A DNA stretch of 64,000 bases from a virus: the IMG/VR virus record IMGVR_UViG_3300028610_001991, one strand, 5' to 3'. A program made the position numbers and the translations under genes. Numbering within the stretch: the first letter of the stretch is position 1; each line of letters starts with the position of its first letter. Positions 18,226-64,000 of this stretch are shown here, one piece after another. Below the pieces are notes generated by a model. That model had not been told where the DNA came from. It ran no database searches and saw only the letters and a program-made list of their open reading frames with translations.

Positions 18226-18231
18226 ATAGAT

Positions 18232-18654: not shown

Positions 18655-18667
18655 AGAAATATACTAA

Positions 18668-19295: not shown

Positions 19296-19533
19296 TAATT
19301 ATAGGATTAAAAATGCCGGATCCGCGAGTAATTTTAAGTGATATAGACTTACAAGGTAATAAAATACTTAATGCTGAAATTGAGCATTTAGAAAAATAAA
19401 AGAAAGTTAAAAATATTATAATGTTGAACGGGGTGCTAACTTATGCTTTAGATGAGTTGCCTTTGAGTAGTGAGGCGGTTCAGTGTTTTATAATTTGTCT
19501 TATACCTGAAATAGTAGTAAAGAGGTTTATTGA

Positions 19534-19839
19534 GTGAATCTTTATGATGACTTAAATATACTACAAAATGTATTAATAAATTTTGTATCAGAGAGGGTAA
19601 GTACGTTTCCAGCTGATGCAAGAAGAGGAAGAGTAATTTTCCATATAGGATTAAAGTATTTGTTTGTATGTAAGAACGGGGTGGAAGATGCAAATGATAC
19701 AACTTTAATAGCAAATTGGGTTGGTGGAAAAGTAATGATAGACGGAATGAGTAGTGAAGGAGAGAATAGAGGAAAAATCTTAATTACAGATGGTGCAGAT
19801 GGGTATCTTTTTGGTGATTGTGACGGCGGTACAATATAA
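19534..19839 (+). CDS. small tail-fibre-associated structural protein
   Basis: DLNILQN...P...G.V.F N-terminal pattern typical of fibre proteins. Confidence 0.5.
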   Translation: MNLYDDLNILQNVLINFVSERVSTFPADARRGRVIFHIGLKYLFVCKNGVEDANDTTLIANWVGGKVMIDGMSSEGENRGKILITDGADGYLFGDCDGGTI

Positions 19840-19855
19840 AAAAGGAGTGTGAAAT

Positions 19856-45278: not shown

Positions 45279-45288
45279 TTAATTGTAT

Positions 45289-45326
45289 ACTCAAGGCAAG
45301 ATACTTCTTGCCTTGAGTTTTATTTT
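45289..45326 (+). terminator. intrinsic terminator
   Basis: Perfect 12-bp stem ACTCAAGGCAAG/CTTGCCTTGAGT followed by TTTATTTT. Confidence 0.85.
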
Positions 45327-45339
45327 AAAGGAGAAATCC

Positions 45340-45630
45340 ATGAATGAAGGTAAGGGTAAGGACATGGTTCCAGACGGAACAGGGCTTTTATATGGTTATT
45401 TTGAACAAATGTATAAAGGTATGTTTGAAAAACAATTAGATATTTTAGAGTATATACTCATCTTGACAGCACCAAAAGATAAAGATGAAATGTTTGTTAA
45501 ACTTAAATCTAAAATATTAAGGCTAGGGAATAATTCATTGCGTCAAGTACAAGATGAATTAAGGAAATATGATATTAGACCGAAGGATGTGGTACATGAT
45601 ATTGTTGTACCACCACAGAATCGGAATTAA
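45340..45630 (+). CDS. hypothetical protein
   Basis: Track ORF 45283..45630 trimmed to ATG 45340 (AAGGAG RBS). Confidence 0.6.
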   Translation: MNEGKGKDMVPDGTGLLYGYFEQMYKGMFEKQLDILEYILILTAPKDKDEMFVKLKSKILRLGNNSLRQVQDELRKYDIRPKDVVHDIVVPPQNRN

Positions 45631-45647
45631 TTAAAAAGGAGAAGGCT

Positions 45648-46421
45648 ATGGCAGACAATGAGAAAAAATTGGCTGAGGAAACTAAAGAAACACCGACCGC
45701 ACCTCCGGGATCACCAAGTCCAGAGGCTGCAACTACAGGTGAAGTTATTGAAGACGAAAAGGCACGTAAATTTACTTGGGTAGATAATCAGGGCGCTAAA
45801 CTTAACCTAAATATTCGTAGGCCTACAGGTGAAGAAGTACAGGCTAGTGATTGGGAATATGCAAGGATATTTAACGAGGCTATCCAGGAAGGGATTATCC
45901 CGCGAGCTGCTCTTATTTCCATATTACAGGAAAGAGGTATCAACTTTGATAAACAGCAGGAAGAAGTAACTGTAATGCAGGATGAGTTGAATGCTTTAAT
46001 AACTGAATTAGAGGAAGTTCGTAAGAAAGAGGATAAGGGTAAGGTTACTGAAGTAAAAGACGACATAAAGGATTTACGTGATAAGCTAATAGTTAAAAGG
46101 ACTGCAATTTCTGATTATACGAGAAATTGTGCTGAGAGTATGGCAAATGATGCAAGAGATGTATTCGTATTAGCTACTATTTTGGAAAAAGATGGAGAGT
46201 CTTTTTTTAATTCAAAACAGATAGGTACTAGACAGGCTATGCGGGAGAGATTGAAAAAGTTCCAGAAAGACGAATACACTACACTACGGCTGCAGGGCTC
46301 TTATGAGTTTATGACATTTGCTAACGGGTTGCCTTCTAACTTTATGGAGCAGTTTCCAGAGAGACAATCAGAGAAATGGGAAACTACTACTAAAGGTAAA
46401 CAGAAAGCTGCTAGTAAATGA
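45648..46421 (+). CDS. tail assembly chaperone
   Basis: IRRPT motif, coiled coil, position. Confidence 0.55.
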   Translation: MADNEKKLAEETKETPTAPPGSPSPEAATTGEVIEDEKARKFTWVDNQGAKLNLNIRRPTGEEVQASDWEYARIFNEAIQEGIIPRAALISILQERGINFDKQQEEVTVMQDELNALITELEEVRKKEDKGKVTEVKDDIKDLRDKLIVKRTAISDYTRNCAESMANDARDVFVLATILEKDGESFFNSKQIGTRQAMRERLKKFQKDEYTTLRLQGSYEFMTFANGLPSNFMEQFPERQSEKWETTTKGKQKAASK

Positions 46422-47458
46422 GTGTAGTCCTTAACGACGAAGAGGTAAGACTATATTTTTCAGAGATAGCTACTGGGACAAGGACTATTACTGTTAAGAA
46501 CAGTAAAGGCAAGGAACTACTAGGAATATTAAGACAACCTACCGCTCTAGAGTATAGAGTAGGGGCGGAAATATATAAAGATACTTTTGAAGATAGTATC
46601 GTTAACAATATAAGAACCAGAAAACAATTAGAGACTGATTTTATTAAACAGTATAACTTTTTAACTGAAGCAGAACTGTCTAAGCTCTCTAGGTTAGAAT
46701 CAGAATTAAAGGTACTAAGAAAGCAATTAATAAGACTTTCTGGTGAGCCGATTTTAGTCAGGCAGAGAAGAGAAGACCTAGATAAGAAAGAAATAGAGTA
46801 CTACACTTTATTTTCAAAAAGAGCTAAGTACTACACAGAAACAGCAGAGTATCAGGCTGAGTCTACAGAGATGTTTCACTATGCTAAATTTTGTATATCT
46901 TTGTGGAAGACTACAGAAAGTTTTCTGGTCGAAAGAGATGATGTATTACGAAGACAAGCTATCCAACAACTTACTTCTTTTGTTCGCGGTTTTGATCAAG
47001 GAACCCTCAGGGCTTTAGCACGAAATCCTATTATTAGAACTCGGTGGAGAGCATCGAAAAAGACCGGTAATCCATTTTTTGGGATACCTATGCAAGGAGG
47101 AAATCAGTTTTTAGGTAGTCCTTCTGCATATTGGACACCAGATCAGATTGGTATGAGTTCCTGGCTTATGTACTATGATGATGTTACTGAAGCTTTTGAG
47201 GCTCCGGAATGGTTATTAAAAGACGATGAAAAGCTTGACCGCTGGGTTGAGAAGAAAATGGAGGCCAAGGAGCGAGAAAGGATTAAAAAACTGGGTGTAG
47301 GGTCTGACAGAGATGCTTATGATCACGAAGAGGTTATTGTTTTTGGTGATGATAAGGATTTACTATTTGGCGAGGGTTCTCCTTATACGCCTAAATGGGA
47401 TAAAGGAAAATCTGGAGATAATATTTCAGACCAGAAATCTATTTTAGGGAACAACTAA
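46418..47458 (+). CDS. second tail assembly chaperone-like protein
   Basis: LRQPT..E; YD.V.E..E.P.W...DD..LD.W pattern; abuts the TMP start. Confidence 0.55.
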   Translation: MSVVLNDEEVRLYFSEIATGTRTITVKNSKGKELLGILRQPTALEYRVGAEIYKDTFEDSIVNNIRTRKQLETDFIKQYNFLTEAELSKLSRLESELKVLRKQLIRLSGEPILVRQRREDLDKKEIEYYTLFSKRAKYYTETAEYQAESTEMFHYAKFCISLWKTTESFLVERDDVLRRQAIQQLTSFVRGFDQGTLRALARNPIIRTRWRASKKTGNPFFGIPMQGGNQFLGSPSAYWTPDQIGMSSWLMYYDDVTEAFEAPEWLLKDDEKLDRWVEKKMEAKERERIKKLGVGSDRDAYDHEEVIVFGDDKDLLFGEGSPYTPKWDKGKSGDNISDQKSILGNN

Positions 47459-50400
47459 ATGCCTGAAGAATTAATACGTATTGATTTAACCGAGATGTCT
47501 GAGCTTAGGGACCTAGTTCAATCTTTACGTGGTATAAAAGATGTCTTTTTAACTTTCTCAAAAGCCGTGAGTACTCCGTCCGGAGGTAAAGCTACAGTAG
47601 GGGAAATATCAATTAAAAACCTCATTAAAAAGTTTGACCAAGAGTTTAGTGCTTTCACTAAAAAGTTTGGAGAAGGTGCTAAGGAGTTTAAGGTTAAAGG
47701 TATTGATGAGGCTCGCCGTAAAATTCAAGGTTTTTCCGGATCTATCGGTAAAATGGTCCAGGCCGTAGGAGAAATAGATAAATCTATAAAATCTATAACA
47801 GCAGCAAGTCTTAAACTTAAAAAATCACCGGAACTTAAAAAAGCTAGAGATACCCTCGAAAAAGAATTAAATAATATTTTTACAAAGTATATGTCTTTAA
47901 ATGTTGATGATGTTATTAGAACAGCTGAAAAAACAGGGAAAAAATTAAATGATTATTTTAAAACTATAAATGATAGATTGGCTGAAACTGGTAAGGGGAT
48001 AGAAAAACAGATTCAAGATTTACCAAAACCTAAAGCTAAGGTTACTAAAGGTAGTCAGGGAGTTGTAGGAAAGGCTAAAGAAGGTATTAAGAAAATAGAA
48101 GAAAAAGAACAGACTTATATTTCAGAGCTGGACGAAAGAGTAACAGGTACCCTAGATGTTTTACATAAGAGATCTATAGATCAAATAGATGCTTTGATTA
48201 AAGAAGTAAGAGGCACTACTCCTGCGGGGGCTACTGCGAGATTTGCTGAGGCAGGGAGAACGGGTGTTTTAAAAACAATCAGCGCTATTAAGAAAGGTAT
48301 TCAGATATCTCAGAAAGGGTTAACTAAGTTAGTAGATAAGGCTCTAAATTTACAGAAATTAAATGAAGTGATAGGTAGGAGTACAAAACAAGTTCAAAGA
48401 CTTGAAAACGAGATTAAAAATATAGAGAGAACTATACAACCTGAGGAAGCTGAGGGTATTATAGCAAGACGGGAACGATGGATAACAGCATTAAATAACC
48501 AGATTAAAAAGTTTACGGAAGCACGCACTACAGTCTGGAATGAAATAAGTAAGAAGTTGTCAAGTGCTGCTATAGGCGATGTCAAAGAATTTGCAAAACT
48601 GTTAGAGACAATAAATGATATACGTTTCTACAGTAGACTTACACGTAGATTAGAAAGAAGGGGGATTTCTCCAGAATCTTTAAATCGTGTTAGAACAACA
48701 TTCGGGGCATTTGAGTTTGAGGGGAAATTTTATGAGAATATTAATTTAATAACAAAGGGTCTTATTGCTACTGCTAAGACCAGTGTAGAAGAAGTAGGTT
48801 TTGCTATCAGTGAGCAGATAGGCCAGTATGGAAAAACTGTAACAAAATTACGTTTGGGCTTTACGAGAGGAAGAGCCCCTAGAGAAATGTTTAAAGTTAC
48901 AGAAGCTATTTCTGGTATTACACGAGGTTTAGGCGGATTACCTGGTGCTAAGTTTGGTAAGGTATCGGCAGGGGCAAAAGAGGATGTTGTTGGAAAATTA
49001 TTAAACAGTATAGCTATGCAGGTAGCTCAACGAGCAAAGTCTGAGGTTAGTGTAAGCGGAATGGCAGTGAGCGGTTTAGATGTAGAGAAAGCGGCTGATG
49101 AAATAGCTACAGCTATTATTACTCCTTTTTCAGGTTATTTGTTAGCTAAAAGGCCGGAGATAGGAAAAGCGGTTATACCCTCAGGAAGACCAGATTTAAT
49201 GAAGCTAGATGATCTTGCCAGGTATATGGTTAGAGAAGCAATGCCTACGGCTATGAGAAAGAAGTTTCAGGTTACCATAAGTAAATTTTTTGAGCAAGCA
49301 GGTGATATAGGTAGAATAAAAACTGAATTTATGAGGGTTATGGGTATGGTAGGACCTGCTGAAACAGCAGGTGCAAGTTATGAAGGTTATATACGGGAGA
49401 TGGAAGCACAGGCTAAACTATTTATCGATCAACAAGAGTATACACGAGAGTTTGCGCCGACTATACAAGCAGCTATAGATGCTTATATATCCGGAGGAAG
49501 TCAGGTATTTGAAAGAGTTGTAAATTTATTAAAGATACGAACACAGAAGTTTTTAGTTGAAATAATAAAGCTTATTCAGAATAGGGTTCAGTTACCTATT
49601 GCTGAAGCTATGGCTAAGTATAGAAAAGAAGTACAGCAGAGATTTGTTGAGATGCTGGTAGCGGGATTTAGGAAAGAACAGGGAAAAGTACAAAAGTTAG
49701 CATCCGGTAGGGCGATGCAGTCTGGACTAATAAGCGGCGCATCGGCTACTGAAGAACAGTGGACAGCACCTTCTGCATTTTCGATTACAACTCCAGGACA
49801 GACACCAAAGATAGAAAGAGAGCTTAGGAGTATGATATTCAACCTGATGTCTTATTCCCTTAGGGGTAAGTCGCTAAAGGGCACTAGGTTTATCTCTGAT
49901 TTTGTTCCAAAGATTTTAAAAGAAACGGAAGCTGCAGAAGTAGGTATGCCTGGTAAGCAATTAATAACAACACAGGCCCTAATAGAGAGAATAAAGACAT
50001 CAAAAGGGGAGGATGCAGAACAAGCAAAAAGACTTATTGAACAGGTTACGGTGTTACCGGAAGAGGAGTTTAAAAGATTTAAATTTATAGCAGAGACCCT
50101 TAAGTTATACATTACAAAAAAAGGTGAGTTTACTAAAAGAGGGCAGGAGATGATGAAGCGTGTTATGGGAAATGCTAGAAGACTAACCAGAGGTGGCGGT
50201 ATTTCTACACAATATCAATCTTTCTTGAAAGTGATGTTTGAGGAGGTTTTAAATATAGAGCGAGAAAGTGTTTTTGCTCAGATGATAGATCCTGCACAGA
50301 TGGAGGCATTTTTATCTCATGAAAAGGTAGCGTCTCAAAAATTAGTAGCTAATATAGTTAGTAGGATAGAAAGGTTTCCGAAGGGTAAAATGAAAACAGG

Positions 50401-53400
50401 CCTTTTGACTTATGCTGATATGAAAGAGAGACAGAGAAAAATTGCGGAAGAAAAGTTAAAGCGGGTAGGTGATATTATAAAGAAATATACGGCTATTGGA
50501 TTTTCACCAACTCTCATTAGGAGACTAATTGCTACGACTGAAAAAGAACAGGAAGTTTTTGATAGAGAAGTTGTGGCGTTAGAGAATGTAATTAAAAGAG
50601 GCGGTGCTGTAGCGTATGAGTATTTTCCTACGCAGCAGATTGTAGAAAAACATAGGCAGGAAGCATTAGCTATCAGGGGGCTTGAAGAGGCTGAGAATGT
50701 AAGTAATAAAAGACTACAGAGAGCTTTTCAGAAAATCAGTAAAGTATTTCAGGAAGGTGCAGGTTTTAAAGAGATAAGACAAATGATATCAGATGTTTAT
50801 AAAAGAGGAGATAGAGAAACTGTATCTCGCTACGATAAGGCTATAACCGCACTATCCTCTATACATAAAGAAAACATACAGAATGTTGGTAAAATACTTA
50901 TTCCTGCAATAGTGCAGTTTTTTGTAGGCGATATGGAGAACTTGGAGCAAGTATTAAGAACATTAGCTTTAATATCGGGAGGAGCTGCTACCGCAGAAAG
51001 GTACGGGAATATAAGGTCTTTAGTTGGTGAATTTTTAGGAATTTCACGAAAAGAGTACGGGCGTTTAGATAAATCTTTAAAATCAGGGAATAAGCAGGCA
51101 GTAAAGGCAGTTCGGGATAGATTAGTGACTTTATTTACTCCGAAGATAATGGATCTTGGAAAAAGTTTGGAGGATTTTTATATACAGATGAGTGCAGACT
51201 TAGCTAATCTTGTTACTACAAACTTAGTTAGTTGGTTTACTGCTCAGAAAGAAGGGTTGGGTAAAACATTCGGTGCAATAGCGATGCGTGTAAGACAGCT
51301 AGGCAGGATGCGTGTTAAAGGTGAAACTATAGGTATGATAGAGCCGTCAGGATTCTTACCAGGAACTACCGGAGAAATACCTATTGAAACTATAAGACAA
51401 GAACAAAGATTATTAGGAGCAAGAGGAAGAAAACCGACAGGGGAGGTACCTGTTTCTTATGCACCGGCGGTTAAAGGGCTAGATGATATTCTTAGGGAGT
51501 TAACTGAAGAATTTAAACTAACTAAAGAGGCTGTGTCAGTACTTCGTGCCTTTATGGAAACTAAATTTTCAGGAAGAGAGGTTGTGGCTATACGTGGTAG
51601 AGCAGGAGTAACTACTCCAGGAAGAGGCGGGCCTTCAGCTTTTGGTGCTTTTGCAGGTAAAGATATTGAATATGGTTTACAAAATATAGTAAAAGATTAC
51701 ATGAAACGGCTAGGCTATACTGTTGAGGGTAAAGCAGCAACAACTGGAACTAAAATACATGATATCTTAGAAGGTGTTTTTTTAGAGTACTCAAAGCGTA
51801 TCGGAACTCAGATGGTAACTGAACAACCAGTAACAACTGTAGGTACTAGAGAAGGCGCTGCTGCTAAAACATCATTATTGGGTTTTGGTAGAATTGATAT
51901 ACTTGGTATATTTAAAGGTTACGGTGAGATATTTAAGGCATTAGGGGCTATGCCTGCTTTAGTAGATATTAAGACAGTAACTCGTCTTGAGGCTTTTGAT
52001 GCAGAGGGATTTAAGACTCAGATTAGTGCGTATGTAGAAATGTTTAAAGTTTTGGTAAAGATGAATCCTGATAAATATCCTGAACTACAAGATGCTTTAA
52101 AACTAATGGGCGGTAGGGAAGTTACTGCTGTACGAAACTCCATTGTAAATATTCAAAGTATTGTTAAGGATATTACGCAGTTACAAGCTGCGGCTCTTGT
52201 TATAGATAGGGAGGCATTTGAGGCAGCTATTAAAAAAGCCGGTTTTAAGAGTATTGATCAACTAAGGTTTTTGGTATTAGCCGGTAAAATAACTAACGAG
52301 CAGGTGAAACGACTTATAACGATTGTTAATCAGGTAGGTAAGGTTGAGGTTTTTGGTTTAAAAGATTTGCCTGATATTGAGAGATTGATGATTCCTGCTT
52401 ATAGAGCAATAGTGGCTTTTGAACAAGTTAATAAAGTGTTAGGTAATATTTCCGGAGAAATAACAAAGAGGTTTGTAGAGTATAAGGGTAGACGTGTAGA
52501 GCATATAGACGAGGCTCTTCTTGCTAAAAATTTAAGGGAGCTAGGGTTGCCGTTTATTAAAGATGCGGAAAAGCTAAAAAGGGTCGCAAAAGAACAAAAG
52601 GTATCTATGGGAGAAGTAAAGGATGCTATAAAAAGAGCAACTGTAACGGTAACTAGCCAAGTTCCGGAACGTGAATTTAAGGATTTTTATGCACAGTTAA
52701 AAGAGAGGTTACTGACACAATTAAAAACTTTAACTGGTTTTTCTAATATAAAACAGTATTTAGGTGAATATATCGGTAGGCAGCAGATAGGTGGTAGGGC
52801 AGGTGTTGCTGCATTGCCAGCACCAGGAAGGGTAGGGGTAGAAAAAGAGAGAGTGCAAGTATCAGCTGAAACAGCAAAAATGACGGGTGAAGAAGCAAAG
52901 GCTTACGGAAACATTATAGGAAGTGTTGAAACTTTAACCGGTAAGTTAAAAGAAAAGACCGGCGCTCTTGAAGCAGAGATGGCTATTTTAAAGGAAGAAG
53001 CTACTATTTTTGTTTCAATTACACAGACAGCGGAAAGTTTGGTTAAGTACCTGAGAGGTACAGAGAAATTATCTTCTGTAATTAAATCAGCTTCACAGGT
53101 TCTTAGCTTGTTTGGACTGAGTGAGAAAGAGGTAGGAAAAGTAGTTAAAAACTTAGGAAAAACTGTCGGAAAGATGGAAGAGTTAAAATCAGCAACATCT
53201 AAGGTAAAAGATACTGTGGAAGGTACAGCTCAGGGATTTGATAGAGTAAATAAAAGTGCAACTGATTCGTCCAAAACTATAGATGATATGCTGGGCGGTA
53301 TGTTTAATTTAGGTAGCGGGACTGCGAGTGTTGAAGAAAAGATTAAGTCAATGACAAGTGAAGCAGGCAGGTACGCTACTATGATGAACAGTGCTGTTAC

Positions 53401-56400
53401 TTTTTCTAAAAATGAATCTGCAAATAGAGAGCAGATTAAAGCTAAGCTTAGTGATGCTTTATCACATATTGAAAAATACGAACAGTTAGCGAATAGGCTT
53501 TCAGAACATTCTAAAAATAATGTAGATGCAGCTAAAGCGGAATTTACAGCACGTCAGAGAATTGCACAGATATACGAGCGTGCTTCTGAGTTTGGATTAA
53601 GGACGGAATCTGAACTAGCAGAGAAGATAGATCTTAGAAATAAAAAACAACGAGATTTATCAAGACAAGCTAATGAGTACTTTACACAGTTAGGTAGGAT
53701 CAGAACTGCATCTGCAGACGCTAACATACCCCTACATGAAAGACTTGAGAGTCTTAGAGAGGCTATACGTGCCTTAAATCAGTATGCAGACGTAGTTAAA
53801 TCGCTTTCTCAGGTTGAGGGAGAGGGCTTAGCAACAGCATCTAGACGACAACAGTTTGCAATGCGTAGATCTCAGATAGGGGAAGCTTTAGGGGGATTAC
53901 AAGCAGAGTTTAAGAGAGGGGCTGATCCTGCAGGGGAATTAACGAGACATATAGGGAAGCAGATATCGCAGTTTAATGAAGAAATGTTATTATCTGGAAG
54001 AGCTTATGCTCAATTAACTAAAGAATCAGGAGGGGCTATAAGAGAAAACTTAAATGTGATTCGTAAAGTAACTGATCAACAAGGTAAGCAGCTACTTATG
54101 GTTGAAGGTATAGCAACAGCTCAGGGTAAAGTAACTACACAGGTAAAAGAGACAGCATCTGTGTATGCTGGAACTGTAGCTAATCAGATGAAAAATATTA
54201 TGGCTAGACTGGCGAAGTGGGGGAGTGGTGCTTTTTTATATTTTGGTGTTATGCGTGGTGCTAGGGATGCTGTTCGTGCAATAACAGAAATGGAAAGCGC
54301 TATTACTTCGTTAAGGCAAGTTATGAATCAGTCTAATACTGATTTTATGGCTATGTCAGAGCAAGCTTACGCTCTAGCTGTGTCCTACGCAACACCTATT
54401 AAAGATTTAATGAAAACTATGTTAGAGTTTGCGCGGCAGGGCCTTAACCAGGAAGAGGTAATAGAGGCTTCACGGGTAGCTACTCTAGCAGCTAATGTAA
54501 CAGTCTTAAATGCAACGCTGGCTATGGACACACTTACAGCTGCTACACGTCAGTATAATATATCTGCAATGGATTCTATAAAAGTTCTTGATGCCTGGAA
54601 TTTAGTAGCTAATAGGAATGCTGTTACTGCAAAGGATTTGGGTGGGGCGATGAAACAGGCAGGTAGTATAGCTAAATTAATGGGGCTTGGTTTTGAGGAA
54701 CTCACAGGTATCATGGCTGCATTACAGGAGACTACCAGAAGAGGTGGACCTACAATCGGACGTGCAATTAGGTTTATGTTAGTTCATTTAAGAACAGATG
54801 AAACAGAGAAAGCTTTAACTGATTTAGGTATTTCTATAAGAAAGACAGCCGGAGAATATAGAACAGCTTCATCTGTATTTAAGGAAGTAGCTGAGAGGTG
54901 GAGAGAATTAACAAGTGCTCAAAAGTACCAAGTTTCTTATGCTATAGGGCACGTAAGGTTTGGTGCATTTGTAGCTGCAATGTTTGAGAATTGGGCTAAG
55001 GTTACTAAAGCTACAACAGAAGCTACTTACGCTCATGGATCTGCAATGGCAGAAAATGAAATAGCTATGCAGGCGTTTAAGAAACAAGTAACAGGTTTAC
55101 GTAATGAATGGGAGGCTTTTATTTATTCTTTTGGTAGAACAGGTATCTTAGGTATACTACGTGGATTTCTTTCAATAGGTAAGGGTATCTTAGGTGTATT
55201 TGATAAACTGCCAGGGGTTATAAAGACTACAATTTCTGTCTTGGGTACATCTGCTGTTTTATTTATGGGACTTAGTCGATTTTTACGATGGTATTTTAGT
55301 ATTGATTTATCAGATGTTATTCGCAGGTGGGGATTAAGAGCGGCAGGAAAAGAGGCGGCAAAAACTATAGGTTTTTTAAAGAATGTTTCTTCAGTAGCTA
55401 TTGGTAAAAATATATCTGAGACAGAAACACTAGCAATGGCACAAAACACAGTAACAGGATCTGTGCAGGGAACAAATGTTTTATATACTACGAGTCTTGG
55501 CCTCCTTAACTCTATGACTTTAGCTACAAGGGAGTTAGCGGTTGCTCAGGGTTTAGTTACTGGGGGCACGACAAAAGTAGCTATGCAGACGTTACCCTCT
55601 ACCCTTGTGATGCAAAGAGGGAGACTTGCACCTACTTCAGCAAGAACGATAAAGGAGAGCGTAGCAGTAGCGGGTACGGGTGCAGCAGTCAAAAGATCAT
55701 TATTTCAGAAGAGTACTTTTAGAGAAACATTTCGTGCAGCTAGGGTATCCGGGAAAGCTACAGGAAATAGATGGGGTAATGCTTTTATGGCTGCAACCTG
55801 GTTAAGGGTTAAGGGTTTAGGTAAGGGATCTTTTTGGAAGGGTTTAGGTTTAGCTTTAACTAAGGTAGGAGGTACTTTAGCAGGATTTTTAACTAGTCCT
55901 CTTGGGATTGTAGCGGCAGCTATAGCAGGTACTACAGCAGCCCTATGGGGATTTAGGAAAGTAACAGATAACACATCTAAAATTATAATTGAAAAAAACA
56001 AAAAGTTAATTAACGAACTTCAGCAGTCTTTAAATGAGGCTAAAATAGCTATTGTTTCTTATACAACGGCTTTAGAGAATATCGCTACGGGTGCTAGGGT
56101 TGATTTAAGTGCTATTGAAAGAGAGAAGAAATTAAGATCAGATATAGCTTCCCGGTTTCCTGGGTTAGTGAAAGGTTATACAGATTACGGGGATGCTATT
56201 CTTGAGTCTTCAAACAGGGTTGGTGTACTTAAAAAAAGAATGGAAGAGTTAGCCACAGTAAAAGCTGTAGAACTAATAGGTATACAGTTAGAGGAAGTTA
56301 GTGTTATATTAAGAGATCTATCAGACCCGAGAGTAGGCAGAAATATTTTAACTTATTTACCGGCCAGTCTGGGTTTGTTGGATAGTACTATAGACAAACT

Positions 56401-59400
56401 AAGAAAAAATATTAAAGAATATAATAATCTACGAGAAGCTTACAATGAGGCATTTAAAAGAGGTTATGATGTTACTACTATTAGAAAAAATATGGGTGAG
56501 ATTGCTGAGGAGATTAGAGAGGGAACCAAGGTAGTAAATACTTCTTTTATTCAGGCAGAAAATAGAATGAGAAGTATAGCAAAGATGGGCGGAACTGCTG
56601 CAGTTGAGGCAATTGGGAGGGCATTACAAACAAACTCATCAAATCTGGAAATTTATATAACTAGTATAGTTCAAAGTTTAGGTACGGAAGATGTTTTAAA
56701 AGGATTCAGAGCATTTTTTGTTAAAACATTTGGCCCGGACTTAGGTACGATTATAAAAGATTCTGTTAGGAATATACCTTTACCAGCTTTAAAAGAGTCG
56801 GCGGAGGCTATATCAAAAGCTATTTCCGATTCTTTATTAACAAATATAGACGTTAAGGGGTCTACCCGAAAGGCAGTTAGAAAAATAGTTAAAGATTTAG
56901 AAGATGCGATTAGGGGTGAAGATTATCAGGAAGCTTTGTTATCGGCTATGGAAGGTATATATGAAATCAGGGGAAAACTAAGCGATAATGCGGTACAGAA
57001 ATTAACTAGTAAGATGGGCGAGTTTGCTATAGTTTTCGCAAAAAAGATAGAAGGCGATGCGAAAGAACATAGAAAAATGTTTATTAAGACTACCGAGGGG
57101 TATGCTATAATAGATGAAGAAGCTATAGCAAACATATTTGGAGGTAAAGATATAGATTTAGAGCTTATTAAAAAGAAAAAAGAATTTATAATGAAATACA
57201 AAAAGTCTGGCGATGTGATTGATATGATTGAAGAAATGCAGCGAGAGAAAGGTAAGTGGGAAGGAGATACATACGTTATTAAAGTAGGTATTAAACCAGA
57301 TGAAGTATACTTTAATAAACTTAAAGTGGCGATGGACGCTGTTAAGGGTTATTCTGCATACCTTAAAGTGATGGATCAGTATTTAACTGGAATTAGTGCA
57401 ACAGAAAAAAACAGAGTAAGTATGATGAAGGATGCTTATTCTATAGGTACGAAGTCAGCAAAAGAATACGCTAATATACTTGATGCTTTGGAAATTAAAA
57501 TCAAAAAGAACTTAAGTAGGTTTGGTGGTTTAATGGGTGCTGGTCCGGAATTTAAAAGGGAGATGCTTGATATTACAAGATTAAGAGCAGAAGCAGAATT
57601 AACTGTTAATAAGTATAATCAGTGGCGTTCCTTAAAGAATAGAATGTTAGCAGATCCTGCAGCATTTCAAAAGGATACACACGCAGTAAGAACCTTTAAG
57701 AATTTAATAGGAGATATCCAGGCTAGTTATAAAACATTACCGAGAGAAGCGCAGGAAATGTACAGGGGTGTTTTTAAAGATATAGATAAAGTTTTAATCG
57801 ATGAAGACCAGGTAGAGAAGAATAAAGAAAAGATTTTAGGTGCAATTAGGGATATAGCTGATAAGGCTAAATATAAAGGTGTATTAACTTTTGAAACAAT
57901 TGATACACGTGTTTTTGATAAAGCCATAGATGAAATATATAAAAAGTTTAGGGACACTTCAGCCCTTACATCAAAAGACGTAGAAAGTATAATAAATAAA
58001 ATCCCTATAGATACAGGGGCTGTAATTAATGCTGAAATAGATAATATGAGAAAAAAAATAAATACGATGAAGAAAGAGCAGTTTCCCGGGCTATTCGGTA
58101 CTATTTCAGAAAGTGACATAAATTATTTTAAACAGCTAAATACGCTATATGGAGAATTAGAGAAAAAAAGAAGAACTGCTAAGGTTTTAGGTAAGGCTTT
58201 ACCATTTATTCCTAAAAAAACTGATTTAGATGCAGTTAGTAAATCTCTAGATAGTTTAATAAAAGAACATGGAGCAAGACTTGCATCAGGAGTTTCAGTA
58301 GATATTAGTAAAAGTGTTTTACCGCGTTTGAAAAAAGAGTTAGAAGCAGTGCAACTGATGAAAATGGAATTTAAATTAGATGAAGCACAGGCCGCTAAGC
58401 AGGCAGTAGGTGCGGCTGAATTATTTAAATCCGCTTTTACAAGAGAATTACATGAGAGGGTAGGAGAAGAAGCAGGAGGAAAACTTGCTTTAGGTACAGT
58501 AAAGGGGCTTCAGCGTGGTTTAACGGTTTTAGGAGGTACTAATTTTTATAGACTATTAGCAGGTACAATGAAGATAGATAAAGTAGCTAATCAGTTAATA
58601 AGATCAGGTCAAAAAGCATTTGAGAAAGCTAGTAGAGGACGAGGTGGTACTGATACGATGACTGCTATACTAGGTTTAACTCAACAGAATATAGGCGAAG
58701 CATTAAGGACAGCTAATTTAGGAGGAGTAGCTATAAACGCAGCTAGTCAGATATGGGATGAATATTTAAGCAGGGCCAGGGACGGAAGTACAGAGAGTAT
58801 TGCAGTTTTTACAGAAACAATAAAAGCTTTTTCTAAGGCCGCAGGGAATACAACGGGAGAAATGTTAGACAACATAACAAAACAAATGGAAGAGGGCATG
58901 AGGCCTGATGTAGCTTTTATGGATATGGTTAAAAGCCTTGGTTTAGCCCCTGAGGATTTAAGACTTATACAACAACAATCAACAAAAATGCTTTCGACTA
59001 TTACAGCTATACAGAAGGGTATGGGAGATGCAGCGAGTGACTACTCTAAGTCTTTAACAGAGTCAGGTAAAAAGTCTAGACTGGAAATAGTTAGTTTGTT
59101 AAGTGAGTCTTTAAATATAGCTAAATATTATGAAAAAAGAAGAGACGAGGCTATAAAGGACATGAAGGAGTATGTAACTACTCTAGTAAGCTATAGTAAA
59201 GAATTGACTTCTGGAGTAGGTGTGTCTTTTGCTGAATTTTCAGAAAAGATGGGTGGGCATCTTGGTGGTATACGTAAGATGTTAAATATATTTTCAAAAT
59301 CTACTGAAGCAGAAGTAAGAGGGTGGGCTAAAGCTTTAAAGGAGATTTTAGGTAGAAAGTTTGTAGAGGCTTTTACAGGTTTTAATATCCAGGCGATAAA

Positions 59401-62400
59401 GCAGTCTATTAATGCAATAAGGGATGCCTTAGCTACTGAAGAATTTGAAGAAACCGGTTACGCTGGCATGACAGCATTGGCGAGTCAAATAAAGAAATTA
59501 GGTATAGCTTTAGCTAAAACAGCAATAAAGTTCCCAGAAGTTAAAACGTGGGGTAAAATGGTTAAGGAGGCTTTTGATAAAAAGACAGTGGCTGAAGCGG
59601 AAGCAATGGGAAAAGCATTAATAAAGTTAGGAAATGAAACAGATGAGTTACGTAAGAGGCGGGATTATTTAAAAAAAGGACCACCTGCAGGGGCAAAGGT
59701 TATATTTTTTGATCCTGCTAGTGTTAACGAATTAGATGAACAAATAAAACAGAATGAGATACGCTACACTAGGTTAAAAACTCAACTAGTAGCAGGATCT
59801 ACAGCAATGAAAAGTTATTTTGAGGATACGTCGAAAGAATTTAATGAGTTATTTAGGGTACTTGGTTATACAGATAAACAGATTAAAGTATCTGATAAAA
59901 ATTTACAGGCTTTAGGCTTAACAGGTATACGGGCAGCTTATGCTGTTATTCAGCAGCAGATTAGTTGGATTAAAATGAATAAGTCTTTATCTGATTTTGT
60001 AACAGTTGCTGACCTGTACACAGATATAGGTTTGGTAAATAGAATAGGTGAATTGACTCCTGTTATTTCTGCTACAGAAGAAGTGCTTACCGCATTAAAA
60101 AAGGAGTATATAAGTAACACTGAAAAGTTAAGGGAATACACGGAACAAACAGAAGATTTTATTAAAGTGCAAGAGAGACAAAAAATAATAGTGGAAACGG
60201 TAAAAGATGTAGAGAACTGGAGGGAAAGATTAGTAGGGTTTGAAAGTATGAGATCTTCGTATTCAGATTTAAATAAAAGTTTAAATTTATTAGATGCTCA
60301 AACAAAGGTATATCAGTCTAGTTTAGATTCTGTAAGTAAAACTGCTGATTATTTTAAAACAACAATTGATAAACTGATTGAATCTTCATTACGTTCCGGA
60401 GAGTGGGGTTGGGATAAAGTTCCGCCACTTATAAAAAGCTCTATAAGTCAGCTAGAGTCTTACTACTCAGAACTGTTAGCTTTACAGAGACAGCAGGATG
60501 TTATTTATAACCAGGTAGATAGACTAGGCGATGCATGGGTGGATGCGCTACATGCCCCTGATGAAGAACAAACACTTTTGAAGTCTATAACAGATAGTTT
60601 TAAACAATTAAGAAGAGATGCATCAAGAAATTTTATACAGCCTGTTCTTGATGACTGGAAGAACTTATTTGCTGGAACTGTACCTATCAAAGATATACAA
60701 GTAGATGCAAGTGCGGAAATAAAGTTTATAGTAGCAGAGATTAAAAGATTAGAAGAAAATATTAGAAGCGAGAAAGGTGTATTCGAGGAAGTTTTTTTAG
60801 GTGATCTAAAAAAGGCATTAGGTATTTTAAATGAGAACGACACTATACAAGCACTTAATAGCATGAGTAAGGTTATTAACAATATATTACTGGGTAAGGG
60901 GGGTGTGGTAAGTGCACCTGTACCCCTTAAAAAGGCAAGTGGGGTTGTACTAACTGCTGCTCAGGGAGTAGTGGATGGAAGGTCTGGAGGTCAGTTAGGT
61001 CACGCTGTAGCTAAGGAAGGTAGTGTTTTAGCTGAACTTCATCCAGGAGAAATAGTTGTACCAGCTCGGTTAGCAGGAGGGGTACCCTCTTACATAACTA
61101 ATCAATTACCTGTTTATGATGGATTTTCTTCAGGGATACGTATGGCTGAGGGTGGTGTATTAACCGAAGAAGAAAATCTTAAAAAAGCAAAACAGGTTGC
61201 TGATAGTTTATTTAATAAAGGTCTTTTTCTGGAAGCTGTATCTGCGTATAGAGGTATACTAAAGGTAAGGCCTAATGATCGGGATGTTAATTTAAACCTT
61301 AATAGATTACTAAGTCAAAATGCCTTTAGTGATCCTTCTATAAAATTAGAAAGAGAAAAAGATATAGCTAAACACCCCGAGATAGAAGAAAAAATAAAGG
61401 AGGCTAATCTTCTCTACAGATCACAGGAGTATAAGAAGGCGCTTGATATTTTTACAGGCATAAGGTTTAAATACAAAGATATTGAACAAGATAGTAAGTG
61501 GCTTACGTATGGTTTTATAGAGAGGATAAAGACATTTATTGAATATAATAAACCCGGGGATGTAGCAGGTCTGATTAAGGAAAAGCCGGAATTAGGTAAG
61601 GCTCTTGATCCGCGGGATATGAATTTAGAGGATGTAGAGTTGTTGGCACGAAGTTCTTCAAGTAAAAAAGAATTGAAATCTATACTGAGTGAGATACCCC
61701 TGGATAACCATAATGTTCGTTTAGGTATGGAATCTTTGATAAAGGAGAAATCTTATTTTTATAAATTATTTGAAAGGCTAAAAAAATGGGGTGCAGTTAG
61801 GTCTGAAGTAAGTTTCGCAAAAGAAATGATGAAGTCACTTAATAAAGAAGCTGTAGTTGATTACTTAGGGATAGAAAAATTTAAGAGATATTTTCCTAAG
61901 ATACCAATTACTAGTAAACAATTTGCTTCAGGTATTAGAATGGTTGAAGGTGGACAGTTACCCTTACCCAGAGCAGCAGTAAGAGGAAGATTTACACAGG
62001 AGGAAAAAGAGAAACAAGCTGAGAATCGTTGGAAAGTAATGGCAAAGATAGCTTCTGCAGCTTGGAAGTTGGGCGGAAAAGGTGTTACAGGGTTTATGGG
62101 TTTAATAAGTTCTGCTCTTAAGAAAGAGATAACTCTTCCTGAAATGAATAATCAGTTAACTAAAGATCAGTTAGAGATGAGGGACGCGATAATGCGTGGT
62201 TTCGGAGGTAAGTATAAAACAGCAGATACGAAAACTGACCTTAATTTTTGGAAAGATGTATATAGGGGTTTAGGGATTATGGGTAAAGGTCTTTCTACGG
62301 GATGGAAGGGATTTATTAAATTTATAAAAGATCATATGAGTTTAAAAGAAATATATTTAGGTGCTAGGGCACAGCAAGGGCAACCAACTGCACTTGATAT

Positions 62401-64000
62401 AGCTGCTGGTCGTGCTTCTGGTTTACGTTTATCTGAAGGTGGACAGTTAGGCCATGCTGTTGCCGCTGCGGGTGAAGTAGCTGCAACATTACATCCAGGT
62501 GAGATAGTTGTACCGGCTCATCTTGCAGGGGGAGTGCCGTATAATATTGTAAATAAGTTACCGGTTTATGACGGGTTTTCTTCCGGTGTACGTATGCAGG
62601 GCGGAGGTAGTATAGGGGGGGTTACTGAAGTTAAAAGTGAATTAGATAAATCTTTTGCTAAGTTAGTGATAGGTTTTAAAGCAGCTGCATTGAACATGGA
62701 AGTATCAGATAAGGTTTTTAGACAGAATTTGGAAGCTCAACGGAGTACTAACAGGAGCATGGAAGATGTAGGCAGGAACATGGAGGTAGTAAGTAAGGGT
62801 TATAAAAAAAGAGCTGCTGTTTCTGCTTCTCCTGAGGATAGTAGGAGTAGTGCTATACGCATAGATACAGACAGTATGGTTTCTAAAGGCAGTGTAGGTG
62901 GAGGAGGAGCTTCTCTAGAGATAGGTATGGTTAAAGCTACAGATGTTATAAAAGGATTTAATACTATTCTAAGTAAACAGGAAGACAAAGTTAAGGAGTT
63001 AACAGACGCTTATACAAAACTTAAACAAGAAACAGGCGATCTTAAAACAGCTTCTAAAGAGGCGAAGGAGGCATTAGCAAAAGCTGATTGGGAGAAAGCT
63101 ATTAATCAAGTTGGATTAGGTTTATTGCATGCGACTGAATTTGTTGCTAAGAAGGCTGAGCCTGTGCTTGTGGGTGGTTTTCAGGCAATAGTAGCCGGTA
63201 TGAGCGGAAGTGCTGAAGTGTTAGCTATGGCTAGAGAAAAGTTAGGGGTAGAAATGGGTAAGCGTGAAAAGCAAGTTAGAGAAGAATTAGCAGGGAAAGC
63301 TGTAAAGAAAGAGGAAAAGAAACAAGTAACAAGAAGAGCTACTGAAATAACAGAAACAATAGGTATTCAAAAAGCCTCCGGAATAAAAATGCATTTAGGA
63401 AAGGCAGAAGGGGAGCGAAAAGACATAAGCCTATCAGCAGAAGACATGGTAAAGACAGTAATGCTAAGTACAGAGGACTATGCAAATGCCTTGTCTAATT
63501 TAAGAGACCCCGACACTGTAGATGCCCTGAATGCTTTACAAATTCAAATGATAGGGGTTAGCGATAAAGCTTACAAAACAGCAGAGGCTGAACTTGTGAA
63601 TGCTAAGGCTAAAAAAGAAGCTGAAACAGCGACTCAGAAAGCTAGTGAAAAACAGTTAGAAGCTGCGAAAAAAAGTGATGCTTTTGGAAAAGCTATGGGA
63701 ACGGTTATTGCAACGCTGGAGGTTGGTATAGGTCAGCAAATGATGAAGGATTTTAAAACATTAGCAGAAGATATAAGTTTAACAATCGGCGGAATAACAC
63801 TTCAAGGGACAGGTAAGACAACAGGTACCCGAATGAAAGAAGCCGGATTAGAAGACTTTCAGATGAAGACTGCTGCAGATAGGCCAGAAGTGCAAGAATC
63901 TGTTTCTGGAGGAGGTGCGGTTGGTGCGGTTGTAGGTAAGCAGCTAGGTACTACTGCGGGTGCAGCTCTAGGGGCTGCATTAGGTGGTCCTGCAGGAGCT
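47459..64000 (+). CDS. giant tail tape-measure protein (>5,514 aa, 3' partial)
   Basis: ATG 47459 directly after the upstream TAA; no stop seen in the segments I translated, and the track lists no ORF in this frame; TP901-type tape-measure core at about 54290-55100 (EF.RQG..., DAWN.VAN..AVT..DL..AM..AG..A...GL.FEEL.G). Confidence 0.9.
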   Translation, partial: MPEELIRIDLTEMSELRDLVQSLRGIKDVFLTFSKAVSTPSGGKATVGEISIKNLIKKFDQEFSAFTKKFGEGAKEFKVKGIDEARRKIQGFSGSIGKMVQAVGEIDKSIKSITAASLKLKKSPELKKARDTLEKELNNIFTKYMSLNVDDVIRTAEKTGKKLNDYFKTINDRLAETGKGIEKQIQDLPKPKAKVTKGSQGVVGKAKEGIKKIEEKEQTYISELDERVTGTLDVLHKRSIDQIDALIKEVRGTTPAGATARFAEAGRTGVLKTISAIKKGIQISQKGLTKLVDKALNLQKLNEVIGRSTKQVQRLENEIKNIERTIQPEEAEGIIARRERWITALNNQIKKFTEARTTVWNEISKKLSSAAIGDVKEFAKLLETINDIRFYSRLTRRLERRGISPESLNRVRTTFGAFEFEGKFYENINLITKGLIATAKTSVEEVGFAISEQIGQYGKTVTKLRLGFTRGRAPREMFKVTEAISGITRGLGGLPGAKFGKVSAGAKEDVVGKLLNSIAMQVAQRAKSEVSVSGMAVSGLDVEKAADEIATAIITPFSGYLLAKRPEIGKAVIPSGRPDLMKLDDLARYMVREAMPTAMRKKFQVTISKFFEQAGDIGRIKTEFMRVMGMVGPAETAGASYEGYIREMEAQAKLFIDQQEYTREFAPTIQAAIDAYISGGSQVFERVVNLLKIRTQKFLVEIIKLIQNRVQLPIAEAMAKYRKEVQQRFVEMLVAGFRKEQGKVQKLASGRAMQSGLISGASATEEQWTAPSAFSITTPGQTPKIERELRSMIFNLMSYSLRGKSLKGTRFISDFVPKILKETEAAEVGMPGKQLITTQALIERIKTSKGEDAEQAKRLIEQVTVLPEEEFKRFKFIAETLKLYITKKGEFTKRGQEMMKRVMGNARRLTRGGGISTQYQSFLKVMFEEVLNIERESVFAQMIDPAQMEAFLSHEKVASQKLVANIVSRIERFPKGKMKTGLLTYADMKERQRKIAEEKLKRVGDIIKKYTAIGFSPTLIRRLIATTEKEQEVFDREVVALENVIKRGGAVAYEYFPTQQIVEKHRQEALAIRGLEEAENVSNKRLQRAFQKISKVFQEGAGFKEIRQMISDVYKRGDRETVSRYDKAITALSSIHKENIQNVGKILIPAIVQFFVGDMENLEQVLRTLALISGGAATAERYGNIRSLVGEFLGISRKEYGRLDKSLKSGNKQAVKAVRDRLVTLFTPKIMDLGKSLEDFYIQMSADLANLVTTNLVSWFTAQKEGLGKTFGAIAMRVRQLGRMRVKGETIGMIEPSGFLPGTTGEIPIETIRQEQRLLGARGRKPTGEVPVSYAPAVKGLDDILRELTEEFKLTKEAVSVLRAFMETKFSGREVVAIRGRAGVTTPGRGGPSAFGAFAGKDIEYGLQNIVKDYMKRLGYTVEGKAATTGTKIHDILEGVFLEYSKRIGTQMVTEQPVTTVGTREGAAAKTSLLGFGRIDILGIFKGYGEIFKALGAMPALVDIKTVTRLEAFDAEGFKTQISAYVEMFKVLVKMNPDKYPELQDALKLMGGREVTAVRNSIVNIQSIVKDITQLQAAALVIDREAFEAAIKKAGFKSIDQLRFLVLAGKITNEQVKRLITIVNQVGKVEVFGLKDLPDIERLMIPAYRAIVAFEQVNKVLGNISGEITKRFVEYKGRRVEHIDEALLAKNLRELGLPFIKDAEKLKRVAKEQKVSMGEVKDAIKRATVTVTSQVPEREFKDFYAQLKERLLTQLKTLTGFSNIKQYLGEYIGRQQIGGRAGVAALPAPGRVGVEKERVQVSAETAKMTGEEAKAYGNIIGSVETLTGKLKEKTGALEAEMAILKEEATIFVSITQTAESLVKYLRGTEKLSSVIKSASQVLSLFGLSEKEVGKVVKNLGKTVGKMEELKSATSKVKDTVEGTAQGFDRVNKSATDSSKTIDDMLGGMFNLGSGTASVEEKIKSMTSEAGRYATMMNSAVTFSKNESANREQIKAKLSDALSHIEKYEQLANRLSEHSKNNVDAAKAEFTARQRIAQIYERASEFGLRTESELAEKIDLRNKKQRDLSRQANEYFTQLGRIRTASADANIPLHERLESLREAIRALNQYADVVKSLSQVEGEGLATASRRQQFAMRRSQIGEALGGLQAEFKRGADPAGELTRHIGKQISQFNEEMLLSGRAYAQLTKESGGAIRENLNVIRKVTDQQGKQLLMVEGIATAQGKVTTQVKETASVYAGTVANQMKNIMARLAKWGSGAFLYFGVMRGARDAVRAITEMESAITSLRQVMNQSNTDFMAMSEQAYALAVSYATPIKDLMKTMLEFARQGLNQEEVIEASRVATLAANVTVLNATLAMDTLTAATRQYNISAMDSIKVLDAWNLVANRNAVTAKDLGGAMKQAGSIAKLMGLGFEELTGIMAALQETTRRGGPTIGRAIRFMLVHLRTDETEKALTDLGISIRKTAGEYRTASSVFKEVAERWRELTSAQKYQVSYAIGHVRFGAFVAAMFENWAKVTKATTEATYAHGSAMAENEIAMQAFKKQVTGLRNEWEAFIYSFGRTGILGILRGFLSIGKGILGVFDKLPGVIKTTISVLGTSAVLFMGLSRFLRWYFSIDLSDVIRRWGLRAAGKEAAKTIGFLKNVSSVAIGKNISETETLAMAQNTVTGSVQGTNVLYTTSLGLLNSMTLATRELAVAQGLVTGGTTKVAMQTLPSTLVMQRGRLAPTSARTIKESVAVAGTGAAVKRSLFQKSTFRETFRAARVSGKATGNRWGNAFMAATWLRVKGLGKGSFWKGLGLALTKVGGTLAGFLTSPLGIVAAAIAGTTAALWGFRKVTDNTSKIIIEKNKKLINELQQSLNEAKIAIVSYTTALENIATGARVDLSAIEREKKLRSDIASRFPGLVKGYTDYGDAILESSNRVGVLKKRMEELATVKAVELIGIQLEEVSVILRDLSDPRVGRNILTYLPASLGLLDSTIDKLRKNIKEYNNLREAYNEAFKRGYDVTTIRKNMGEIAEEIREGTKVVNTSFIQAENRMRSIAKMGGTAAVEAIGRALQTNSSNLEIYITSIVQSLGTEDVLKGFRAFFVKTFGPDLGTIIKDSVRNIPLPALKESAEAISKAISDSLLTNIDVKGSTRKAVRKIVKDLEDAIRGEDYQEALLSAMEGIYEIRGKLSDNAVQKLTSKMGEFAIVFAKKIEGDAKEHRKMFIKTTEGYAIIDEEAIANIFGGKDIDLELIKKKKEFIMKYKKSGDVIDMIEEMQREKGKWEGDTYVIKVGIKPDEVYFNKLKVAMDAVKGYSAYLKVMDQYLTGISATEKNRVSMMKDAYSIGTKSAKEYANILDALEIKIKKNLSRFGGLMGAGPEFKREMLDITRLRAEAELTVNKYNQWRSLKNRMLADPAAFQKDTHAVRTFKNLIGDIQASYKTLPREAQEMYRGVFKDIDKVLIDEDQVEKNKEKILGAIRDIADKAKYKGVLTFETIDTRVFDKAIDEIYKKFRDTSALTSKDVESIINKIPIDTGAVINAEIDNMRKKINTMKKEQFPGLFGTISESDINYFKQLNTLYGELEKKRRTAKVLGKALPFIPKKTDLDAVSKSLDSLIKEHGARLASGVSVDISKSVLPRLKKELEAVQLMKMEFKLDEAQAAKQAVGAAELFKSAFTRELHERVGEEAGGKLALGTVKGLQRGLTVLGGTNFYRLLAGTMKIDKVANQLIRSGQKAFEKASRGRGGTDTMTAILGLTQQNIGEALRTANLGGVAINAASQIWDEYLSRARDGSTESIAVFTETIKAFSKAAGNTTGEMLDNITKQMEEGMRPDVAFMDMVKSLGLAPEDLRLIQQQSTKMLSTITAIQKGMGDAASDYSKSLTESGKKSRLEIVSLLSESLNIAKYYEKRRDEAIKDMKEYVTTLVSYSKELTSGVGVSFAEFSEKMGGHLGGIRKMLNIFSKSTEAEVRGWAKALKEILGRKFVEAFTGFNIQAIKQSINAIRDALATEEFEETGYAGMTALASQIKKLGIALAKTAIKFPEVKTWGKMVKEAFDKKTVAEAEAMGKALIKLGNETDELRKRRDYLKKGPPAGAKVIFFDPASVNELDEQIKQNEIRYTRLKTQLVAGSTAMKSYFEDTSKEFNELFRVLGYTDKQIKVSDKNLQALGLTGIRAAYAVIQQQISWIKMNKSLSDFVTVADLYTDIGLVNRIGELTPVISATEEVLTALKKEYISNTEKLREYTEQTEDFIKVQERQKIIVETVKDVENWRERLVGFESMRSSYSDLNKSLNLLDAQTKVYQSSLDSVSKTADYFKTTIDKLIESSLRSGEWGWDKVPPLIKSSISQLESYYSELLALQRQQDVIYNQVDRLGDAWVDALHAPDEEQTLLKSITDSFKQLRRDASRNFIQPVLDDWKNLFAGTVPIKDIQVDASAEIKFIVAEIKRLEENIRSEKGVFEEVFLGDLKKALGILNENDTIQALNSMSKVINNILLGKGGVVSAPVPLKKASGVVLTAAQGVVDGRSGGQLGHAVAKEGSVLAELHPGEIVVPARLAGGVPSYITNQLPVYDGFSSGIRMAEGGVLTEEENLKKAKQVADSLFNKGLFLEAVSAYRGILKVRPNDRDVNLNLNRLLSQNAFSDPSIKLEREKDIAKHPEIEEKIKEANLLYRSQEYKKALDIFTGIRFKYKDIEQDSKWLTYGFIERIKTFIEYNKPGDVAGLIKEKPELGKALDPRDMNLEDVELLARSSSSKKELKSILSEIPLDNHNVRLGMESLIKEKSYFYKLFERLKKWGAVRSEVSFAKEMMKSLNKEAVVDYLGIEKFKRYFPKIPITSKQFASGIRMVEGGQLPLPRAAVRGRFTQEEKEKQAENRWKVMAKIASAAWKLGGKGVTGFMGLISSALKKEITLPEMNNQLTKDQLEMRDAIMRGFGGKYKTADTKTDLNFWKDVYRGLGIMGKGLSTGWKGFIKFIKDHMSLKEIYLGARAQQGQPTALDIAAGRASGLRLSEGGQLGHAVAAAGEVAATLHPGEIVVPAHLAGGVPYNIVNKLPVYDGFSSGVRMQGGGSIGGVTEVKSELDKSFAKLVIGFKAAALNMEVSDKVFRQNLEAQRSTNRSMEDVGRNMEVVSKGYKKRAAVSASPEDSRSSAIRIDTDSMVSKGSVGGGGASLEIGMVKATDVIKGFNTILSKQEDKVKELTDAYTKLKQETGDLKTASKEAKEALAKADWEKAINQVGLGLLHATEFVAKKAEPVLVGGFQAIVAGMSGSAEVLAMAREKLGVEMGKREKQVREELAGKAVKKEEKKQVTRRATEITETIGIQKASGIKMHLGKAEGERKDISLSAEDMVKTVMLSTEDYANALSNLRDPDTVDALNALQIQMIGVSDKAYKTAEAELVNAKAKKEAETATQKASEKQLEAAKKSDAFGKAMGTVIATLEVGIGQQMMKDFKTLAEDISLTIGGITLQGTGKTTGTRMKEAGLEDFQMKTAADRPEVQESVSGGGAVGAVVGKQLGTTAGAALGAALGGPAGA

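Follow-up and report, generated by a model that had tools for sequence, protein, structure and literature searches.

A 64,000-nucleotide (nt) stretch of the IMG/VR virus record IMGVR_UViG_3300028610_001991 (here, the window) contains most of a giant open reading frame (ORF) that, judged by its family matches, is the phage's only tape measure protein (TMP) gene and is of the PF10145 type. It probably encodes one protein of 6,433 amino acids (aa), which is free of cysteine and predicted to be mainly alpha-helical, in an uncultured phage with a genome of about 180 kb, a low GC content, and a tail that is likely non-contractile. The same reading makes this phage a distant relative of the large Bacillota siphophages of the SPbeta, Tsamsa/Thrax2, and Lactococcus 949 groups. 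The gene class is well known and well understood; the present TMP is a record-size example of it.

The frame opens with an ATG at position 47459 (+ strand) and runs through 5,514 stop-free codons to the window end at position 64000, where its translation ends ...AALGAALGGPAGA. An initial annotation, made from the letters of the window, had described a single frame of exactly this extent, and its reality in the window is confirmed. Stops are expected at 8.1% of codons at the local base composition, and the probability of 5,514 consecutive open codons is about 1e-202. In the ORF listing, no other ORF of at least 150 aa overlaps the giant frame on either strand. No long exact DNA repeats able to mislead an assembler were found inside it, and both composition and GC skew are uniform along the region (GC content, about 36%). 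The window corresponds to positions 54486-118485 of a single 180,316-bp IMG/VR record (G000:C1), classed as linear and 96% complete (CheckV). Extension of the contig, proposed as a check in the initial annotation, carries the frame 2.76 kb past the window to G000:C1:121245 (window-equivalent position 66760); read as in the window, the gene is 19.3 kb long and its full-length product has 6,433 aa. The start adjoins the stop of an upstream 346-aa gene (TAAATG), and both the N-terminus and this junction are conserved in a relative contig (L003).

Identity as a TMP is supported by several family searches. PF10145 (PhageMin_Tail) matches aa 2305-2492 with 96.6 bits, compared with a Pfam cut-off of 33.2, and a search of the genome with the same family found one locus only (103 bits; the record is 96% complete). 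Thirteen PHROG tape-measure families match within aa ~1950-3170, the best of them being phrog_4211 (E 3.6e-84 over aa 2236-3152). When aa 2001-3000 were used as query for tblastn, 202 phage records were matched, all at annotated TMPs, including SPbeta YomI and those of Bacillus phage vB_BanS-Thrax2 and the Lactococcus 949 group (24-27% identity over about 430 aa). The initial proposal of a TMP of more than 5,500 aa is thus upheld, the protein comprising 6,433 aa in full. Megablast with 24 kb of sequence found nothing matching among phage records, and IMG/VR scans with the core protein and with the DNA pattern of a disputed site (see below) were likewise negative. A further search for core homologs among proteins of up to 2,000 aa found one distant TMP of 1,554 aa.

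In a search of 5.8 billion proteins, one long relative was found, an uncharacterised metagenomic protein of 6,927 aa (P0002/P0005; gene length, 20.8 kb) that is collinear with the TMP from aa 418 through the last residue at 22-40% identity. Identity amounts to 22% in the N-terminal 1,500 aa, 40% at aa 2065-3420, 32% at aa 3656-4573, and 40% in the C-terminal 920 aa; the most conserved block (aa ~2236-2560) reaches 75% in L003. This ortholog is present in a Logan assembly and in the JGI metagenome contig Ga0272443_10000775 (L003; coding region, 2741-20953), the two versions being 99.98% identical over 6,071 aa. Because it occurs in two independent assemblies, the giant size is conserved in the lineage and is not an accident of assembly. 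The two genes share the gene directly upstream (346 aa in the present phage; 60% identity), and the two proteins share a duplicated cassette and nuclease-like motifs, whereas the ortholog is 494 aa longer, mainly in its N-terminal part and between the cassettes, and has a GC content of 41%. Neither protein contains a single cysteine (6,433 and 6,927 residues, respectively), which fits a protein that travels unfolded through the tail channel.

The TMP begins with an extension (aa 1 to ~2000) that has no family match, is poorly conserved, and is strongly helical-periodic at its start. Beyond the core lie membrane-type hydrophobic segments, which align with glycines and hydrophobic residues conserved in the ortholog, and a long helical-periodic stretch (aa 2830-4440). 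Toward the end, a glycine-zipper-like segment, in which many Gly positions are invariant between the orthologs, is followed by a conserved C-terminal region (aa 5510-6433). Helical hydrophobic periodicity exceeds the 90th percentile of shuffled sequences in 39% of scanned segments versus 10% expected, with lower values at aa 4400-5400 and 5600-5800, and no excess of beta periodicity was seen along the TMP. Self-BLAST revealed a 57-aa cassette (LHPGEIVVP...LPVYDG) whose two copies in the TMP are 77% identical; it is also found twice in the ortholog, with a spacing of 800 aa versus 484 aa in the TMP. The cassette has no meaningful match in phage records, nor as a profile in PDB, and a TPR_14 match between the cassettes, like other Pfam matches, remained below the cut-offs. 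Over half of the TMP length has no family assignment. AlphaFold predictions from two-sequence alignments failed because of too few relatives (mean predicted local distance difference test scores of 35.5 for aa 1385-1605 and 33.8 for the C-terminal 1,200 aa), and the models were not used.

Pfam and PHROG searches detected no lytic transglycosylase or peptidase domain in the TMP. A DxDxD (DFDGD) motif, the conserved metal-binding motif of the P23-45 RNA polymerase type, is absent from the N-terminal 2,000 aa of the TMP and of its ortholog; the single DxDxD in each protein lies outside this part and is not conserved. Likewise, the orthologs have no conserved HExxH metallopeptidase motif. Because neither motif is conserved, the TMP is neither a metallopeptidase nor an RNA polymerase fusion of the type found in Thermus phage P23-45, and a two-barrel polymerase of this kind was rejected.

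The segment at aa ~1425-1530 is a weakly supported candidate for a PD-(D/E)XK nuclease (RecB/Cas4-like). Its motifs, GTxIHxIxE ... EQ ... D ... DIKT ... QxxxY, are invariant between the orthologs in a region that is 26-33% identical. The segment of the TMP matches the phrog_298 exonuclease with E values of 2e-4 per library and 2e-5 per genome, and PF12705 (PDDEXK_1) matches the segment of the ortholog (E 2.6e-4) but not that of the TMP at E<=10. There was no PDB profile match, and an exhaustive HMMER search of 1.84 billion representatives found no outside relative of this region. A literature search found no TMP with a nuclease domain. Elsewhere in the window, a stand-alone exonuclease is encoded at positions 13176-13943 on the - strand (phrog_298, E 3e-29); pairwise comparison shows no similarity between it and the nuclease-like segment of the TMP.

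By analogy with TMPs that have been studied, we infer the following course of assembly and infection. A few copies of the TMP would be coated by chaperones and held in an extended, helical state, with the C-terminus anchored in the tail-tip complex. Tube protein would then polymerise along the TMP and stop at its N-terminus, so that tail length would track protein length, perhaps over the whole protein. During infection, the TMP would be expelled ahead of the DNA, and the hydrophobic segments (aa 2563-2826), together with the glycine-zipper-like segment (aa ~5480-5545), may insert in the envelope. The nuclease-like N-terminal module would possibly be delivered with the TMP, as happens with the RNA polymerase that forms part of the TMP of P23-45, and could be active as a nuclease.

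The scale of such a tail may be estimated from P23-45. Its TMP (gp96) has 5,002 residues (PMC10770324), and its tail is given as 800 nm in a preprint (10.1101/2022.12.01.518664). The precedent named in the initial annotation, TMPs of about 5,000 aa with tails of about 800 nm in Thermus phages, is correct for P23-45, and division of these cited figures yields 0.16 nm per residue. With 0.15-0.16 nm per residue, the 6,433-aa protein would give a tail of 965-1,030 nm (in rounded terms 0.95-1.0 micrometre, provided that the entire protein counts), the part comprising aa 2000-6433 about 660-700 nm, and a 5,023-aa frame (see below) 750-800 nm. Without a contribution from the first ~1,400-2,000 aa, the predicted tail is about 0.65-0.8 micrometre. 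The first ~1,100 residues of the P23-45 TMP are a folded RNA polymerase (PMC10770324). Since P23-45 keeps 0.16 nm per residue despite this polymerase, an embedded enzyme need not shorten the tail.

A number of observations weigh against one uninterrupted gene for a whole-length ruler. The window and the public IMG contig differ at a sole site in 64 kb, positions 51679-51689 (G000:C1:106164-106174), where the window reads GGTTTACAAAATATAGTAAAAG and the public genome reads GGTTTTAAAATATAGTTAAAAG. The difference is a -1/+1 indel pair: the public genome has one base fewer and then, 11 nt on, one base more. Over eight codons, it reads G F K I stop L K D, and the window reads G L Q N I V K D. The public contig therefore has an in-frame TAG at codon 1410, which leaves open frames of 1,409 and 5,023 aa. 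The public gene call (JGI/IMG, P0004, from a 180,316-bp contig) follows the TAG version, and ESM Atlas contains the same stop-bearing sequence. This 1,409-aa protein is identical to the TMP through residue 1406 and has ...EYGFKI as its C-terminus. It was also the single match when aa 420-1619 were compared with the 1.84 billion representatives by exhaustive HMMER search, and an ESM Atlas search with it gave weak leads only (TMP_3 cluster at 0.88). The genome record has no suppressor transfer RNA (tRNA), and TAG is used there as a regular stop, terminating 17 of the 114 long ORFs. Thus, read-through does not explain the TAG, and amber recoding or suppression was rejected. ARAGORN found no tRNA or transfer-messenger RNA genes at all in the 180,316-bp record. 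An internal stop, which the initial annotation had named as grounds for abandoning the single frame, is present in the public copy and absent from the window. Besides the stop, about 3,300 aa of the protein (aa 1-2000 and 5050-6433) have no family match in Pfam, PHROG, and PDB searches; the helical, ruler-like nature of most of it rests on a crude periodicity measure, because the AlphaFold models were unusable; the sheath searches described below could overlook a very divergent sheath; and the tail length is an extrapolation from protein length.

It is possible, though rather unlikely, that the public record is right and that a 1,409-aa N-terminal protein ends at the TAG, a separate protein of about 5,020 aa with the nuclease-like module, the TMP core, and all that follows starting a few codons on. 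Such a split could reflect either true gene fission at the border between domains or a mutation that inactivated the gene in the genome sampled; the TMP proper would then have the size of that of P23-45, with a tail of about 0.75-0.8 micrometre. The genome copy, the IMG call, and the Atlas call all bear the stop, which precedes the first nuclease-like motif by about 20 codons, a plausible domain boundary; an ATG follows five codons past it (codon 1415), and coupled stop-start junctions are common in the operon. However, this ATG is preceded by no Shine-Dalgarno-like sequence, the ortholog is uninterrupted at the disputed site in two assemblies, and the truncated product is recorded from one contig only. 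Furthermore, a compensated -1/+1 pair 11 nt apart is typical of a consensus or haplotype glitch, not of a designed gene junction, and the public version closes all three frames. The five residues of the window also match the ortholog better than those of the public version (BLOSUM62 scores of +1 and -8, respectively), which is weak evidence. Even if the gene is split, the part with the TMP core has at least about 5,020 aa. A more radical explanation, in which the giant ORF arose as a chimera during assembly or as an artefactual fusion of several genes, draws on the metagenomic origin of the contig and on the conflict between its copies at one site. Mis-assembly is very unlikely, because two independent assemblies each contain the collinear ortholog of 6,927 aa; the minute probability of a random open frame of this length, the lack of long repeats, and the uniform composition and GC skew argue against it as well, and we regard this explanation as highly improbable.

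Two further alternatives concern the ruler itself. According to the first of them, which appears unlikely, only a central part measures the tail, be it the ~2,200 aa from the core to the cassettes (about 330 nm), as the initial annotation had offered, or aa ~2000-6433 (about 650 nm), and the remainder would be ejected cargo stored elsewhere in the particle. This arrangement is suggested by the globular ~1,100-aa N-terminal RNA polymerase of the P23-45 TMP (PMC10770324), the nuclease-like segment at aa ~1425-1530, the reduced helical periodicity at aa 4400-5400 and 5600-5800, and the variable spacing of the cassettes. However, there is no positive evidence for a ruler end point, the cassettes lack matches in phage records and PDB, and the C-terminal 920 aa are among the best conserved (40%), as would be expected if this end docks in the tail tip. 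The whole P23-45 TMP, moreover, corresponds to 0.16 nm per residue, so that the enzyme within it causes no visible shortening of the tail. The core-to-cassette ruler in particular is unsupported; helical periodicity is enriched along most of the TMP and the ortholog is collinear to the C-terminus. We regard as doubtful a further possibility, that the TMP both measures the tail and delivers cargo, with an N-terminal extension of ~2,000 aa that includes an active PD-(D/E)XK nuclease and is ejected before the DNA, with the cassettes serving as processing or docking points. If this were true, the nuclease could attack host DNA or process the entering genome, and the TMP would represent a second, mechanistically different case after the RNA polymerase fusion of P23-45, carried on the longest phage tail yet (about 1 micrometre). 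Taken together, we favor the single 6,433-aa TMP whose whole length may measure the tail.

The surroundings of the gene fit a TMP, with tube and chaperone-position genes upstream and fibre and carbohydrate-binding genes downstream; the features in the window are collected in the table below.

Features of the window that bear on the giant TMP gene (positions are those of the 64,000-nt window)
Feature	Position	Strand	Basis
Major head protein candidate, start of head-to-tail late operon	39400..40347	+	phrog_2522, E 8.8e-7
Tail tube (major tail) protein candidate, 566 aa	43578..45278	+	ESM Atlas neighbours
Three ORFs (115, 257, and 346 aa) in tail assembly chaperone position	45283..47458	+	ORF list, position only
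Giant TMP ORF, first 5,514 of 6,433 codons	47459..64000	+	ORF listing, translation
Only difference between window and public contig; public version has TAG at codon 1410	51679..51689	+	Sequence comparison
PD-(D/E)XK nuclease-like candidate segment, aa ~1425-1530	51731..52048	+	Motif order, phrog_298
PF10145 PhageMin_Tail core, aa 2305-2492	54371..54934	+	Pfam, 96.6 bits
Membrane-type hydrophobic segments, aa 2563-2582, 2587-2606, and 2805-2826	55145..55936	+	Kyte-Doolittle scan
Cassette copy 1, aa 4510-4566	60986..61156	+	Self-BLAST
Cassette copy 2, aa 4994-5050	62438..62608	+	Self-BLAST
Gly/Ala-rich glycine-zipper-like segment, aa ~5480-5545, continuing past window end	63896..64000	+	Translations

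Four small genes separate the head protein candidate from the tube-like gene. The product of the latter found no match in Pfam, PHROG, and PDB sequence searches; its ESM Atlas feature and structure neighbours are Phage_tube_2, Phi812_tail_tube, and YomU_Tube (TM by row, 0.81-0.88). At 566 aa, the tube candidate is about twice the size of the tube-family clusters that it resembles (267-318 aa), with an alignment covering residues 1-533, which suggests that it carries inserted or extra domains. The very long-tailed phage P74-26 likewise has an enlarged, duplicated tube protein. The 115-, 257-, and 346-aa ORFs show no family match in Pfam, PHROG, and PDB searches and are, from their position only, putative tail assembly chaperones. 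Downstream of the TMP gene follow, in this order, genes for proteins of 686 aa, 2,183 aa (tail fibre PHROG), 893 aa, and 460 aa (F5/8 type C). The 2,183-aa protein, two genes past the TMP (G000:C1:123317-129868, + strand; L002:2118-8669), is another very large tail protein mostly without assignment, its fibre PHROG match being confined to a region near the C-terminus. A radical SAM enzyme gene (phrog_1802, E 5e-50; L002:12701-13996, + strand) lies within the tail-fibre gene block. No sheath domain was found anywhere in the record, which is a weak negative given how divergent the phage is; because none is detectable, the tail is more likely to be non-contractile. The portal-like protein and the TMP core match only phages of Bacillota, which, together with the GC content of about 36%, is a hint that the host may be Bacillota-like.

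The combination of a giant TMP, a long tail, and an enzyme at the N-terminus has a precedent in the P23-45/P74-26 group, whose TMPs have been linked to the longest recorded tails of any known virus (PMC10770324, PMC10034513). Like them, the present phage has a giant single siphophage TMP with a very long N-terminal region before the membrane and TMP-type parts. However, a sequence relation is undetectable, the present TMP is about 29% longer than that of P23-45, the longest TMP studied (6,433 versus 5,002 aa), its candidate enzyme module is nuclease-like rather than an RNA polymerase, and it lacks the conserved DxDxD motif and any HExxH motif; moreover, the phage is low in GC (36%) and akin to Bacillota-type phages, unlike a Thermus phage. 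With the TMPs of SPbeta (YomI), Thrax2, and Lactococcus 949, all from large-genome siphophages, the present TMP shares a PF10145 core followed by hydrophobic segments, and its genes are arranged, from the head to the distal tail, in the order seen in the Tsamsa-like phage Thrax2, whose own TMP has 3,031 aa. Yet it is 2 to 3 times longer than these TMPs and differs from them in its duplicated 57-aa cassette and nuclease-like module and in having no detected lytic transglycosylase or peptidase domain; about 2,240 residues precede its core, compared with ~630 in Thrax2 and ~570 in the phrog_4211 profile. In 2016, 9-kb TMP genes from Gordonia phages ranked "among the largest" (PMC4919401), whereas the present gene and its ortholog, which belong to another lineage, measure 19.3 and 20.8 kb, respectively. 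TMPs of 6,433 and 6,927 aa in a low-GC siphophage lineage unrelated to the Thermus phages predict tails of about 1 micrometre, which would mean that extreme tails are not confined to thermophiles. Next to P23-45 and P74-26, this lineage would offer a second natural case in which to study how very long tubes assemble faithfully and whether large non-ruler modules, here possibly a nuclease, ride the ruler into the host.

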